Shown: positions 44,571 through 48,409 of the stretch, piece after piece
How the letters are laid out: each line of letters begins with the position of its first letter
Numbering within the stretch: position 1 is the stretch's first letter
Assembly (NCBI GenBank): GCA_947466225.1
Contig: CANIBL010000007.1
Coordinates: 1,763-65,762 of the forward strand
DNA: 64,000 nucleotides
Reading direction: 5' to 3'
Origin: Deltaproteobacteria bacterium
GTDB lineage: Bacteria > Bdellovibrionota_B > Oligoflexia > Oligoflexales > Bog-1112
Translations under genes and position numbers: made by a program
Notes under the pieces: generated by a model
What the model was told of the DNA's origin: nothing
Seen by the model: only the letters and a program-made list of their open reading frames with translations
Databases searched by the model: none

Positions 44571-45209
44571 GTGAAACATATAATCTGGCTTGTAATCACG
44601 ATTTTTCTAATTGTCGCGTATCAAAAAATAGAGATGCGATTTCCCAAAATACGAGAAACACCTACGCTTGATTCGGTTTCATCTTCTCGTTCTGTGTTGC
44701 CTCTGGTGGAAACGATTCCACAGAGAAGAAAGGAAATGTCCCATTCTCTTTCTTCTCATGAAAGACAGGCCTTTTTTTCTGATATTCAACATGTTTTTTT
44801 GGATAAAGCGCCGCATGTACTCGATCCTGCTCGGTTGCAGGCAGATTTGATTCGACTCAATGAAAGGGGCGAGGAAGGGGTGCAATCGATTTTTGACTCT
44901 CTACAAAAAATTCCTGTAACAGAGGCCGAAGGCAAGCATCGTATTTCCTATATTGACTATCTTTCGTATCGCATGCGTTGGGATCCAACGGTGCAAGAAA
45001 AGGCGAAATCTTGGATTCTCGATGGATCTGAAAATGCTGCGATTTCTACTAAAAGCCTCTCGATGATTTTGGCTGATAAAACTGAATTATTGAGTGGTTT
45101 GGCGCGGGTAAATCAGCAAGAAGCCCAAGAGGTTCTGGCTTCATTGGAGCCTTCTCTTTTATTTGAGTTTGGGTCACAAGAGCTGGTGGAAAAAGGGGAT
45201 AAACCATGA
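44571..45209 (+). CDS. N-terminally membrane-anchored protein, unknown function (operon gene 1)
   Basis: GTG start with GGGAGG 6 nt upstream. 212 aa with a single N-terminal TM helix (IIWLVITIFLIVAY) and a helical remainder. Confidence 0.5.
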   Translation: MKHIIWLVITIFLIVAYQKIEMRFPKIRETPTLDSVSSSRSVLPLVETIPQRRKEMSHSLSSHERQAFFSDIQHVFLDKAPHVLDPARLQADLIRLNERGEEGVQSIFDSLQKIPVTEAEGKHRISYIDYLSYRMRWDPTVQEKAKSWILDGSENAAISTKSLSMILADKTELLSGLARVNQQEAQEVLASLEPSLLFEFGSQELVEKGDKP

Positions 45210-45823
45210 ATGCATTTTTGATTTTATACTTATCCTTGAGCGCTTGTGGAAAGATGTCCGCTTCGACAGATACGAGGAAAGCACCGCCCCCTTTGCAGCT
45301 TCATGTGGTGCCGCAATCTACTGCATCCCAAAAACCGCACTATGATGCCAAAAAACGAGAAGGCCGATTGGACTTATTGGTGGAATACCATAAGACGGGG
45401 GATCGAGGTAGCATTTCGCTTTCGACTGTAACACTCGCTTACCTATATACAGAATATGATCAAAGCCAGTTGGATTACCCATTTGATAATGAGCGAGCGC
45501 ATATCTATTTGAAAATACCAAAAAAATCAAAAGGTGAACCAGAAGAAAGAATTGAAGTAGGGCAATATGAGCCAGCCTTGAATTTTGGCATATTACCGCC
45601 CTCGACTTCTGGTTTACTTCCATCCGAGTATTGGCAGTCTCATGGGCGATGGATTACACCCACTCTTTGTACCGGTGACTATGAATCGGTTTGTCATCTC
45701 GAGGTAAAAATCAAAAAATCACGGTCTACTTTTACCCCAGGCCAGAAAATTTCCGTTTTTTTGTATGTAGGGCAGAGTCAAAAACCGGTCTATGAGGCCA
45801 CATCAAAGAAGGAGAACCCATGA
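45206..45823 (+). CDS. lipoprotein, unknown function (operon gene 2)
   Basis: ATGA overlap with gene 1. The lipobox is LSLSACG. 205 aa. Confidence 0.55.
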   Translation: MNAFLILYLSLSACGKMSASTDTRKAPPPLQLHVVPQSTASQKPHYDAKKREGRLDLLVEYHKTGDRGSISLSTVTLAYLYTEYDQSQLDYPFDNERAHIYLKIPKKSKGEPEERIEVGQYEPALNFGILPPSTSGLLPSEYWQSHGRWITPTLCTGDYESVCHLEVKIKKSRSTFTPGQKISVFLYVGQSQKPVYEATSKKENP

Positions 45824-46620
45824 ATCGCAGCGTAGTTTGGCTATTGGTGAGTCAATGTTGGAGCGCATATTTATATGCGATTACCTGTACAGCGGCAGAC
45901 TTTCAGCCTGCACTTTGTAATCTGCCCGTTTTAGAGGGAGTGCGTTGTGCAAACGCAGAATTTTTCCGTAGCTATTGCAGTGCGCATACCGACGGATGTG
46001 CGGCTGTAGGTGGCTGTTTTGGGTTTACGCCACCCGGGCATTGGTATCCGATTTTGGGTACTGATGGAAAACCCTTTCGTCGGTGTCGGTGTGGCTGCTT
46101 TTCCGAAGAAACCCAATTTTGGGGGCTGGGAAATCGAACCGGTCGTAATTTGATAGAAGCGAAAAATGAAAGGATTCTTTTATATACAAGAAAAAACCAA
46201 GCCTCTGTCTCTTTCAAAAAGAAATCGATAAATGGGCTTATGCATGCAAAGGATACCCATGCCATTCATTTGGTGACACTTGATGGGCACTCGATTTTTC
46301 TCTCAGATGGTCATCCTGTGGTGATCGCAACGGAGACGGGAGAGTTGGATGCCATGAAGCAAGCCAAAGATGTGATGGTTGGAGACTTTTTACTTACCCA
46401 TGGGAATCAACCGGTACAAGTCTCTCGTCTGGAAATGGTTCCATATGAAAAAGAGATGATGAATTTCAATGTGGTGTCGTCCAACCCCATGCACCATATC
46501 GTAGTTGCCAATGATCTTCAAATGGGTGATTTGGCGTGGCAAGAGCAACTCCACAGCGTAGAAGCGCGTATGTACCATCGACAAGACCTATGGGTCTATT
46601 TGGAAGGACTAAAAAAATGA
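45820..46620 (+). CDS. secreted Cys-rich protein with C-terminal Hint (intein/hedgehog-like) domain (operon gene 3)
   Basis: ATGA overlap with gene 2, and a signal peptide. Cys residues sit at positions 13, 23, 33, 43, 53, 60, 66, 89 and 91. C93-F then starts a Hint-like module: CFSEETQF..., block-B-like LSDGHPVV, VMVGDFLL, and C-terminal NFNVVSSNPMHHIVVANDL without a terminal HN. Confidence 0.55.
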   Translation: MNRSVVWLLVSQCWSAYLYAITCTAADFQPALCNLPVLEGVRCANAEFFRSYCSAHTDGCAAVGGCFGFTPPGHWYPILGTDGKPFRRCRCGCFSEETQFWGLGNRTGRNLIEAKNERILLYTRKNQASVSFKKKSINGLMHAKDTHAIHLVTLDGHSIFLSDGHPVVIATETGELDAMKQAKDVMVGDFLLTHGNQPVQVSRLEMVPYEKEMMNFNVVSSNPMHHIVVANDLQMGDLAWQEQLHSVEARMYHRQDLWVYLEGLKK

Positions 46621-47879
46621 AACGAATTTTGGGTGTTCTGCTGCTTCTTTCTAGTTGTGGAAGTCCTCCCCGAGAGGGGAAAACTTTCTTATTCAATGTA
46701 CCGGGAGAAGATTCTTCTATGGCTTTGTTACCGGGCCAAGGGGTGAATCATATCGATTGGACGGCAAAAGGATTTTGCACGGATACTCAGCATTTTCAAA
46801 CCCAAAGTGGACAATCTACCGGACAATTTGTGGAATTTCGCTTATTGGAAATTACATCTGTATCTGCGTTGCGAGAGAGTTTGCATGTGACGGCAGCTGC
46901 AAGCTTTCAGGCTTCGATGTTCGGTCGTATGTCGGCACGTATGGACTATGCCAAAAGTGTGAACCAAAATAGCCAGTCTCGCTACCTTTTGGTACACACT
47001 CGCGTGGGGAATCAACTCAATTTGGCAACCCAGTTTCGATTTCGTCCGGAGGCACAAGCGTTGCTACAACAAGGAGATACGAAACGATTTCTGGAAAATT
47101 GCGGCACCCAGTTTGTTTATGGCTATCGCACGGGCGGCGAATTCTTTGCGCTCTTTGAGTTTGAGTTTTCTAGCGCAGAAGAAGACCGAAAGTTCAGCGC
47201 TGCCATTCAGGCCTCCGGTGTGAGTTGGAAAGCCTCAACAGAAATTACTTCTGCCTTGCAAAAGTTTTCTCTCCAAGCGCGCACGCATTTATCTATTTAT
47301 CGAATGGGGGGTGCCGGCCCTTTACCCGATGTGGGGGATATCCGAAATTTTTCTCTGCAGTACCCTACATTGGTGAGTACGCTACATCAACATTTTGTCA
47401 CCTTGGAGTTGATCACAAAAGACTACAGTGGTGTTGAACCTGTGAACCTATCACCAAATCCGGGATTGCTTATTCGGCAAGATCAGGTGATCAATCAATT
47501 GGCCCGTGATCGAGATCATGCGGTGGAGATATCCAACACCATTCGGTATATCAAACTACATCCACAAGAATTTTCGATTCTCTCTGATTCTCTGGATCGA
47601 AGTGATGTAGAGATTACGAAGTATCTCAATCGGGTGAATCAAGCGGCTGTCAATTGCTTTGCAGATATTTGGAATGGGTGTGCAGTACCTGAATTGGTGT
47701 TTCCTTCTATTGCTTTTCCGATGCGAAAAGTAGGGATCTCTCGTTGTGAGACGGGTTTTGTTTGGTCAGAAAGCGATCAAAAGTGCTGTCGAAATGAAAT
47801 TCAGACTGTGTGTGTAGCGGAGGATGGTGCCGGAAATTGTCTACTTTATGAAGAAAGGAGTGTCAAAATATGTCAGTAA
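46617..47879 (+). CDS. lipoprotein with MACPF (perforin-like) signature and Cys-rich C-terminal domain (operon gene 4)
   Basis: ATGA overlap with gene 3. The lipobox is LLLSSCG. FLENCGTQFVYGYRTGGEF matches the MACPF signature [YW]-G-[TS]-H-[FY]-x6-G-G except for C in place of Y/W and Q in place of H. The last ~75 aa contain 8 Cys. Confidence 0.6.
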   Translation: MKRILGVLLLLSSCGSPPREGKTFLFNVPGEDSSMALLPGQGVNHIDWTAKGFCTDTQHFQTQSGQSTGQFVEFRLLEITSVSALRESLHVTAAASFQASMFGRMSARMDYAKSVNQNSQSRYLLVHTRVGNQLNLATQFRFRPEAQALLQQGDTKRFLENCGTQFVYGYRTGGEFFALFEFEFSSAEEDRKFSAAIQASGVSWKASTEITSALQKFSLQARTHLSIYRMGGAGPLPDVGDIRNFSLQYPTLVSTLHQHFVTLELITKDYSGVEPVNLSPNPGLLIRQDQVINQLARDRDHAVEISNTIRYIKLHPQEFSILSDSLDRSDVEITKYLNRVNQAAVNCFADIWNGCAVPELVFPSIAFPMRKVGISRCETGFVWSESDQKCCRNEIQTVCVAEDGAGNCLLYEERSVKICQ

Positions 47880-48409
47880 AGAAAACACAATGCATGTTAT
47901 TGGGATTGTGGTTGGGGTTCTGTACGTATGGGGAAAGCTGGGGACATGAAAATGACTTGAGTCCCTTTCGTTCCGTCTCGTTGCGAGCAGAGGTGAAAAC
48001 AGTACGTCAAGTTGCGACAGGGAAAATTGCATTACATTTGCGCGTACCGCATACCTATACCAATTCGTTGGCGTGTAGTGGGTCTCTTTCTTTTGGTGTG
48101 GAGGGGGAGGAGGCGGAACGAGGCATACAAATTAGCGATATGCTGGTGATCCCAGATGCTGCCTTTGGGCGTCCGCTTTCATTCTTGTTACCTGTATCCT
48201 TGCCAGCAGGCGAAACGGTAGCCCCCTTTTTCTACCAAGAGCGAGAGATTCTTTGTCGAGGCTGGGATGCGCGAATTCCGTTGCCGGAGGGATTGTGCAA
48301 AAATCCGGTTTTGGTGCCAGGTTTCTTGGAGGCTTGTGGCATGGTAGCGCCGGGGGCTATGGTTCCATGGATCCGCAATGGAATTTATATCGGGGCTTGT
48401 CGATGCTAA
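47870..48409 (+). CDS. secreted protein, unknown function (operon gene 5)
   Basis: 10-nt overlap with gene 4. The N-terminus is hydrophobic. 179 aa, ending ...YIGACRC. Confidence 0.5.
   Translation: MSVKKTQCMLLGLWLGFCTYGESWGHENDLSPFRSVSLRAEVKTVRQVATGKIALHLRVPHTYTNSLACSGSLSFGVEGEEAERGIQISDMLVIPDAAFGRPLSFLLPVSLPAGETVAPFFYQEREILCRGWDARIPLPEGLCKNPVLVPGFLEACGMVAPGAMVPWIRNGIYIGACRC

Follow-up and report, generated by a model that had tools for sequence, protein, structure and literature searches.

Pore formers of the MACPF (membrane attack complex/perforin) and CDC (cholesterol-dependent cytolysin) families are central weapons of immunity and pathogenesis, and few multi-component bacterial systems built on them are understood: the CDC-like (CDCL) toxins with BcdI, the BSAPs and the aegerolysin pairs. 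In Bacteroides a CDCL pore former is encoded together with a protective surface lipoprotein, BcdI, which blocks CDC-like pores (PMC11169675). A separate line of work on Hint domains has defined the Hog domain with its adduct recognition region (ARR), in a survey that also noted other secreted bacterial proteins with C-terminal Hint-like regions (PMC2362128). Here we describe a locus in which a candidate MACPF pore former and a secreted Hint protein are neighbours. It lies in a 64,000-nucleotide stretch of DNA from a Deltaproteobacteria bacterium of the class Oligoflexia (assembly GCA_947466225.1, contig CANIBL010000007.1, positions 1,763 to 65,762), hereafter the window, by which we mean the whole stretch that was analysed, and it consists of five genes at 44571-48409, here called A to E. 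Gene D encodes the candidate pore former, C the Hint protein and E a small secreted protein that is best seen, from its sequence relationships, as a detachable domain or dedicated partner of D. We lean, with a little over even confidence, towards reading the cluster as a Sec-exported, co-translated module around the MACPF pore former that acts overall through a membrane-attack mechanism.

The cluster is compact and all of its genes are on the plus strand. Gene A (44571-45209, 212 aa) opens with a GTG codon and is followed by B (45206-45823, 205 aa), C (45820-46620, 266 aa), D (46617-47879, 420 aa) and E (47870-48409, 179 aa). The first four are chained by ATGA overlaps at 45206, 45820 and 46617 and D is joined to E by a 10-nt overlap, exactly as an earlier interpretation of this DNA made from its letters (the sequence-only reading) had described. 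A purine-rich Shine-Dalgarno-like sequence stands 4-8 nt before each of the five starts, for example GGGAGG at 44560-44565 for A. The D open reading frame (ORF) has an alternative GTG start at 46536; the ATG at 46617 is preferred because of the lipoprotein signal MKRILGVLLLLSSC, the N-termini of orthologues and the start chosen by independent gene calling on three further contigs from this organism. Both proposed boundaries were also found: upstream of A there is a divergent spacer of 202 bp (44369-44570), with a minus-strand SprT-like gene carrying DUF2786 and DUF7168 domains on its other side, and E is followed by a tRNA-Cys gene (48423-48496), which lies on the minus strand. Export signals, read by eye from the sequence, agree with the earlier prediction that all five products leave the cytoplasm, with a membrane anchor in A, lipoboxes in B and D and type-I signal peptides in C and E. 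Conserved cysteines are present in B, C, D and E, which fits a location outside the cytoplasm; A has no cysteine. Identical or near-identical copies of the locus were seen on metagenome contigs.

The identity of D was established from its predicted fold. A search of a 5.8-billion-cluster protein collection returned 68 homologues, 41 of which were used for an AlphaFold model with a mean predicted local distance difference test (pLDDT) score of 83.6. This model has the MACPF/CDC fold, with a bent central beta-sheet and two flanking helical clusters, and a Foldseek comparison with the PDB gave 45 matches at E <= 1e-3, every one of them an MACPF or CDC protein, at probabilities of 0.93-1.00 (1.00 in 41 of the 45). 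The best match was TgPLP1 (1.7e-7), and further strong matches included stonustoxin, complement C8 and C9, MPEG-1, perforin, Plu-MACPF, BT_3439, pleurotolysin B and perfringolysin. The MACPF assignment of the sequence-only reading is borne out by these results. Pfam MACPF was also matched at E <= 1 by four of the 41 D relatives (best 2.4e-5), and a precomputed PF01823 domain is recorded on one relative, P0054.

Several features of the D sequence are consistent with the model. The protein (46617-47879, plus strand) begins with a signal that has the lipobox LSSC (Cys14), and continues into the MACPF/CDC core at about residues 26-350; a helical region lies between this core and a beta-strand tail, which is cysteine-rich (eight cysteines, residues 347-420, 47655-47876). 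The MACPF signature is Y/W-G-T/S-H-F/Y-x6-G-G. In D the corresponding segment, CGTQFVYGYRTGG at residues 162-174 (47100-47138), reads C162-G-T-Q-F-VYGYRT-G-G174, so that the core G-T-x-F-x6-G-G is kept with C instead of Y/W and Q instead of H. What had been called an MACPF signature is a partial match, in which the core holds and the full signature does not. Residues G163, F166, T172, G173, G174 and E175 are invariant in the D family. The two helical clusters that correspond to the transmembrane hairpins (TMH) show alternation of polar and non-polar residues: TMH1, residues 80-120 (46854-46976), alternates clearly (SSLELVAAFAMGMAMYKV vs TVARSHTASQSFRSRD), and TMH2, residues 184-222 (47166-47282), alternates with a change of register. 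Such alternation is as expected of segments that would refold into membrane-spanning beta-hairpins. Roughly half of the D relatives carry a lipobox and the other half have ordinary signal peptides, as soluble secreted proteins would. No second MACPF-fold gene was found in the cluster or in the window, and a scan of viral contigs gave no relative of D.

Solitary distant homologues of D were also noted on Clostridium, Bacillus and Paracoccus plasmids, with 24-28% identity over 67-81% of D. The D profile matched 4878-6257 of L028, the Clostridium sporogenes plasmid pNPD7, at 4e-45, and 4773-6401 of L029, a Paracoccus plasmid, at 4.5e-36, both annotated as hypothetical. These relatives of the MACPF core of D appear to form an uncharacterised bacterial MACPF subfamily.

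Genetically, E is inseparable from D. The E product (47870-48409, plus strand) is secreted, with a cleavable type-I signal peptide and six conserved cysteines, and ends in G-x-C-x-C. Its gene adjoins D in 17 of the 24 loci outside the window, standing before D in three lineages. We also found the two genes joined. A D-E fusion ORF of 541 aa is present on two independent contigs (L024, 892-2517, and L025, 4799-6424), and further fusions occur in the related protein P0004 and the divergent protein P0039 (531-549 aa for the fusions overall), so that fusion is found in at least two divergent lineages. In the fusions mature E follows D directly, in place of most of the cysteine-rich tail of D. An exhaustive profile search of 1.84 billion representative proteins yielded only 36 representative clusters for E, and its confident matches are all either short proteins that stand alone, mostly of about 165-220 aa, or fusions with D. 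The weakest match, P0118 (1,384 aa, E = 9.2e-4), was disregarded. It is because of these natural fusions, and because E occurs only in the context of D, that we regard E as an ancillary domain that can be detached from D. The C-terminal domains of other MACPF/CDC proteins suggest, by analogy, that E would probably serve in target recognition. The E family has no significant match in Pfam and its profile has none in the PDB, aegerolysins included.

The C-terminal end of D varies among its relatives. One locus, L005, has no E gene and carries a D whose tail is replaced by an E-like C-terminal segment, and two loci with known context (L019 and L021) encode a D with a different C-terminal end and likewise have no E gene. 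Several other D relatives, compared as proteins apart from their neighbourhoods, have a different C-terminal domain of 150 residues. An apparent homology of E to all D proteins, which arose in an iterative search, was rejected: the profile had been contaminated through the D of L005, and a clean E profile matches only that tail.

The gene set is conserved beyond this genome. Searching from D in one genome per GTDB species identified 18 loci, family hidden Markov models were run over the ORFs of 27 fetched loci, and about 20 genomes and contigs of the Oligoflexia proved to have the cluster. Genomes of Oligoflexia and Silvanigrellaceae repeat the order A, variable slot, C, D, E among flanking genes unrelated to those of the window; the M23 peptidase, SprT and MqnC neighbours are common only to the window and its closest relative, L006. 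A reciprocal search of metagenomes from C returned four contigs, with D adjacent on every one long enough to show neighbours. The proposal that the genes belong together is thus upheld from both directions. As a five-gene unit it needs amending: A, C, D and E are shared, B is not a regular member, and the minimal core is D-E. It is hardly credible that these are unrelated genes merely packed tightly. Stop/start overlaps are indeed common in compact bacterial genomes, but here they are also present in the relatives, and tight linkage is kept in relatives as distant as about 45% identity in D while the flanks change. That explanation is refuted by this conserved linkage, by the adjacency of D in the reciprocal search, by the D-E fusions and by the restriction of E to the context of D. 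Every relative is from a metagenome-assembled genome, whose label is Oligoflexales, Oligoflexia or Silvanigrellaceae or an older one, Deltaproteobacteria or Pseudomonadota. This points to the class Oligoflexia of the phylum Bdellovibrionota, to which the module is lineage-specific.

Gene C (45820-46620, plus strand) encodes a signal peptide, a cysteine-rich cargo and a Hint domain, in that order. The signal peptide was read from the sequence at residues 1-20 (45880 being the first nucleotide after it; 45820-45879), and the orthologues have canonical type-I signal peptides. The N-terminal domain, at residues 21-92 (45880-46095), contains eight invariant cysteines (C23, C33, C43, C53, C60, C66, C89 and C91) and ends in CRCG. 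The Hint domain, recognised from its fold and from the family profile, occupies residues 93-237 (46096-46530), and a helical extension of 29 residues, with invariant W240, Q241 and R254 and a low-confidence model, fills the remainder up to and including the stop codon (46531-46620). In the model, residues 91-243 have block-mean pLDDT values of 78-96, mostly above 80, and Foldseek matched this part at a probability of 1.0 and target-normalised TM-scores of 0.7-0.82 to mini-inteins, the Clostridium bacterial intein-like (BIL) domain (2lwy and 6y75 among the BIL hits), Tetrahymena BIL2 and the hedgehog autoprocessing domain (1at0, 6tyy). A profile of 17 C sequences matched inteins, first among them KlbA (2jmz) at E = 3.9e-7, and Pfam Intein_splicing was matched by seven of the 17 members (best 2.4e-5). 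The Hint-like module of the sequence-only reading is thereby confirmed in both the modelled fold and the family profile.

The catalytic residues of the C family point to its chemistry. Residues C89, C91, G92, C93, S162, H165, P166, G236 and D237 are invariant in the 17 sequences, giving the junction C89-x-C91-G92|C93-F and a block B of the form S162-x-x-H165-P166. The domain keeps what is needed for an N-to-S acyl shift, namely Cys1 and the Ser/His of block B. The His-Asn found at the C-terminus of inteins is absent: the domain ends at the invariant G236-D237, followed by Leu-Ala-Trp-Gln, without a nucleophile. With no His-Asn end, no +1 nucleophile and only 29 residues after it, splicing by C is not expected. 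The predicted reaction is an N-to-S acyl shift at Gly92-Cys93, after which the upstream domain would be released or transferred, and the 72-residue, eight-cysteine domain is the predicted released product.

This N-terminal domain has no detectable relatives outside these loci, within which it also occurs on its own. Stand-alone paralogues with their own signal peptide and without Hint are encoded at L007 5543-5866, L008 5578-5877 and L011 5966-6310, and those of L007 and L008 terminate precisely at C-[RQ]-C, a single residue short of the Hint junction. These two loci form a natural control: their copies stop where cleavage is predicted, which argues for the freed domain as the functional product. 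We also noted a divergent Hint protein, C', after D in two loci (L019, 1839-2705, and L021, 1753-2667), with an unrelated N-terminal cargo and a retained Cys junction (CSCG|CF in L021, S|CY in L019). A further observation concerns a similar ending, P-G..aromatic-P...G..C-x-C, at residues 155-179 of E (48332-48406) and residues 65-91 of C (46012-46092). In a profile-profile comparison this similarity gave P = 0.019 over 25 columns, which is not significant, and it is a lead rather than homology; a common origin, or a common binding partner, is conceivable for E and the domain predicted to be freed from C. Comparison of the profiles of A, B, E, the C N-terminal domain and the D tail with one another gave no significant relationship.

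Two other ways of using the Hint domain have to be weighed. Bacterial polymorphic toxin systems use Hint domains to release toxin domains (PMC3482391), and C could by this model release a C-terminal toxin with the MACPF protein as its delivery pore. We give this very little chance, and domain order largely rules it out: the cargo is N-terminal, only 29 helical residues follow the Hint domain, and there is no toxin-sized region after it. Moreover, none of the 17 C family members matches PF07591 (PT-HINT) or PF13403 (Hint_2), the matches being to Intein_splicing, Hom_end_hint and Hint. By these sequence criteria the C Hint is neither a splicing intein nor a polymorphic-toxin Hint.

The second possibility is a transfer of the Hedgehog kind, in which a lipid or a partner protein, and not water, would resolve the thioester of C, steered by the extension after the Hint domain, and the N-terminal domain would end up anchored by its C-terminus. 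We consider this improbable, although the order of elements in C (signal peptide, cargo, G|CF, Hint without terminal Asn, short conserved extension) is Hog-like. It would be equally doubtful that the anchored domain then serves, for instance, as a CD59-like inhibitor shielding the membrane of the producer from D; here it is in favour that the cargo is small and disulfide-rich, like CD59, and that the self-protective surface lipoprotein of CDC-like toxins has been likened to CD59 by its authors (PMC11169675). In its fullest form, to which we likewise attach a low probability, a membrane lipid, or else a residue of D or of E, would resolve the thioester, and the tethered eight-cysteine domain would be a CD59-like pore regulator or cofactor. 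Against it stand the stand-alone paralogues, which end at CxC without a Hint domain, so that the N-terminal domain can evidently work without a Hint-made adduct, and the extension, which is only 29 residues long and modelled at low confidence; in addition, adduct chemistry cannot be inferred from sequence. If it were true, the pairing known from complement, of a pore former and an inhibitor anchored by its C-terminus, would have evolved independently in bacteria by different chemistry.

The remaining two genes differ in their conservation. The A product is cysteine-free, with an N-terminal membrane anchor at residues 4-17 in an N-in/C-out orientation, so that its helical domain lies outside the cytoplasm; 12 related loci have an orthologue, and N97, G103, Y130, L131, Y133, R134, D138 and E172 are invariant. 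The B product is a fast-evolving lipoprotein (lipobox LSAC, Cys14) with homologues only in L005, L011 and L020, and it is missing from the closest relative, L006. Of the dedicated lipoprotein partners proposed earlier, B is thus a lipoprotein, but one that occupies a variable slot with counterparts in three other loci rather than representing a conserved family. In the role of B, six other loci have ORFs of 81-106 aa that are homologous to the tail of D (L007 6820-7140, L008 6854-7147, L014 5058-5360, L017 2296-2571, L018 7140-7385 and L027 5245-5496). All six lie between A and D, just after C in L018 and L027, and the four that were aligned (L007, L008, L014 and L017) carry a lipobox. A membrane-anchored copy of a toxin tail resembles decoy-type self-protection, and by this analogy the small D-tail proteins may be decoys; self-protection by a surface lipoprotein has its precedent in BcdI (PMC11169675). 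The statement that three of the proteins have no recognisable family stands, as A, B and E have no significant match in Pfam, NCBIfam or PADLOC; their family profiles found nothing meaningful in the PDB, and none of the five proteins matched a PADLOC defence-system model.

Regulatory signals were sought upstream of A. Six related loci have, 45-73 nt before the A gene, a -24/-12 motif of the sigma-54 type, YGGYAY-N5-HTGCH (for example TGGCACGACCATTGCT), at L005 5656, L007 4690, L008 4709, L014 4187, L020 5380 and L027 3606, against a background of 24 matches in 683 kb with both strands counted, or about one per 28 kb. The position of this motif supports the view that A heads a regulated unit in these six relatives. 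In the window, the spacer at 44369-44570 has no match to the sigma-70 or sigma-54 consensus, and a promoter and terminator scan of the locus gave fewer promoter-like sites than shuffled sequence and terminator-like matches that fall inside genes. The spacer also contains a GC-rich hairpin, CCCTGGCTGACAGGG, followed by a T-run on the plus strand (44494-44508), with no plus-strand gene before it; the hairpin core TGG[CA]TGACA is common to the same position in L006 and L025.

In the mechanism that we favour, D would oligomerise and insert a beta-barrel pore into a target membrane, and E would be supplied in trans as its target-recognition or ancillary domain, comparable to domain 4 of the CDCs or to the small partner of two-component MACPF toxins. 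Formation of a thioester at Gly92-Cys93 of C would lead to release of the 72-residue disulfide-rich domain ending in CxCG as the active product. The released C domain, B and the small D-tail lipoproteins would all be candidates for a cofactor or for self-protection, and A may be an inner-membrane-anchored factor outside the cytoplasm that possibly holds or assembles the complex. Most likely the purpose is to attack other cells, be they competitors, prey or hosts, at their membranes. We infer functions in killing, predation and self-protection, and the inference is strengthened by the D-E fusions and the domain-only paralogues.

An alternative that we judge unlikely, though worth serious attention, is that D and its partners are not lytic and make up, in the cell's own envelope, a complex with a structural, adhesive or export-related function. 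All five products are envelope-targeted, with D predicted to be lipid-anchored in this genome; the locus is chromosomal, without mobile-element, phage or defence-island signals and with unremarkable base composition; and the other genes flanking it here, an M23 peptidase and MqnC, are housekeeping genes. Such a function is harder to reconcile with the TMH regions, which retain the amphipathic alternation of inserting hairpins, and with the fact that about half of the D relatives are soluble secreted proteins and not lipoproteins. The variable C-terminal domains and domain-only paralogues, moreover, resemble toxin/immunity diversification.

A number of observations weigh against the membrane-attack module as set out above. 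Some MACPF proteins are not lytic. The window D scores below the 21.5 cut-off of Pfam PF01823 (E = 0.017, 15.7 bits) and the window C alone has no Hint match in Pfam or NCBIfam, where it remains under the gathering scores, so that the family assignments of both are drawn from folds and family profiles. The Foldseek TM-scores of D are modest (0.2-0.4), which makes it a divergent MACPF/CDC member, and the N-terminal domain of C is modelled with low confidence. No homology to known proteins could be detected for A, B or E, and their roles are consequently read from context. Four Oligoflexales loci (L004, L009, L010 and L013, from three to four genomes) have D-E with no A or C nearby, from which it follows that C is not required for the function of D. 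The sigma-54-type motif of the six relatives is lacking upstream of A in the window, and all known carriers are metagenome-assembled genomes, with no cultured carrier found.

Some other genes of the window were noted in passing. A 664-aa exported protein is encoded at 35999-37993 on the plus strand, and the gene matching it on a contig is marked as Peptidase_C25 (gingipain-type) with a propeptide; surface cysteine proteases of a different family, C11, activate CDC-like toxins in Bacteroides. On the minus strand, 57567-58361 encodes an exported protein of 264 aa whose contig counterpart is marked as ERG2/Sigma1R family PF04622, a sterol-isomerase-like assignment that is unusual for a bacterium. 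The M23 peptidase (41979-43355, minus strand) is a single ORF of 458 aa, and on L001, a contig from the same organism, it is split at 5296-6652 by a frameshift into calls of 399 aa and 58 aa, which is probably an assembly or strain difference. Finally, an exported protein of 218 aa at 49677-50333 (plus strand), whose TTG start overlaps the stop codon of the MqnC-like radical SAM gene, found no match in Pfam or NCBIfam.

The sequence-only reading knew of no described system in which a perforin-like pore former is combined with a Hint module and dedicated lipoprotein partners, and a full-text search of the literature likewise found no paper that links MACPF with a Hint domain in bacteria; a full-text search also returned nothing on MACPF proteins in Oligoflexia or predatory bacteria. 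The locus is a candidate for an attack system in the Oligoflexia, a branch of the predatory Bdellovibrionota that has hardly been studied. It adds to the known pore formers a new conserved partner set, with a detachable E backed by natural fusions and a Hint protein not reported beside a pore former, and includes what we predict from sequence to be three new protein families, namely A, E and the C N-terminal domain. It also offers a tractable case for asking what secreted bacterial Hint domains do, including whether proteins outside the cell are tethered through thioester chemistry, and its domain-only paralogues suggest decoy-type self-protection.

Among known systems, CDCL/BcdI of the Bacteroidota is similar in having a Gram-negative MACPF/CDC pore former in an operon with an exported lipoprotein; there too lipoproteins are common among the pore formers, pore function involves a second component and the producer needs self-protection. 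In contrast, the present cluster has one MACPF-fold gene rather than a long/short CDCL pair, and in the fold search its D protein falls with the MACPF proteins and not with the CDCs. Its A, C and E belong to unrelated families, a Hint protein is present, and the host is a member of the Oligoflexia and not of the Bacteroidota. The aegerolysin/MACPF pairs (pleurotolysin A/B and OlyA/PlyB) also use a small separate protein that works with an MACPF protein, as E is tied to D here, but E is disulfide-rich and without an aegerolysin match in Pfam or the PDB, and those systems have no Hint protein, lipoproteins or A-type protein. The BSAPs, Plu-MACPF (2qp2) and BT_3439 (3kk7) share the bacterial MACPF fold and variable C-terminal targeting domains (PMC12853789). 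They differ in that BSAPs are single genes beside a receptor-replacement gene, with no Hint or E-type partner, and in that the sequence similarity of these bacterial MACPF proteins to D is under the level of detection. The plasmid-borne solitary MACPF proteins have the YG..TGGE core and the C..C.P helix end seen in D, but the two that were examined (Clostridium sporogenes and Paracoccus) have no A, C or E nearby and carry other C-terminal domains, and the Clostridium protein lacks a signal peptide.

On the Hint side, C resembles the Hog and BIL proteins in its order of signal peptide, cargo, Gly|Cys-Phe and Hint, in having Cys1 and the block B His, in its short extension, and in lacking an intein-type C-terminal Asn or +1 nucleophile. 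Unlike them, it carries an unrelated eight-cysteine domain as cargo, has an MACPF protein as its genomic partner, and is by sequence closest to mini-inteins; from Hog proteins in particular it is set apart by an extension of 29 residues with at most a putative sterol or adduct function. The building blocks of this locus, an MACPF pore former, a Hint domain and lipoprotein partners, are thus each known, and it is their combination that is new among multi-component MACPF/CDC toxin loci.

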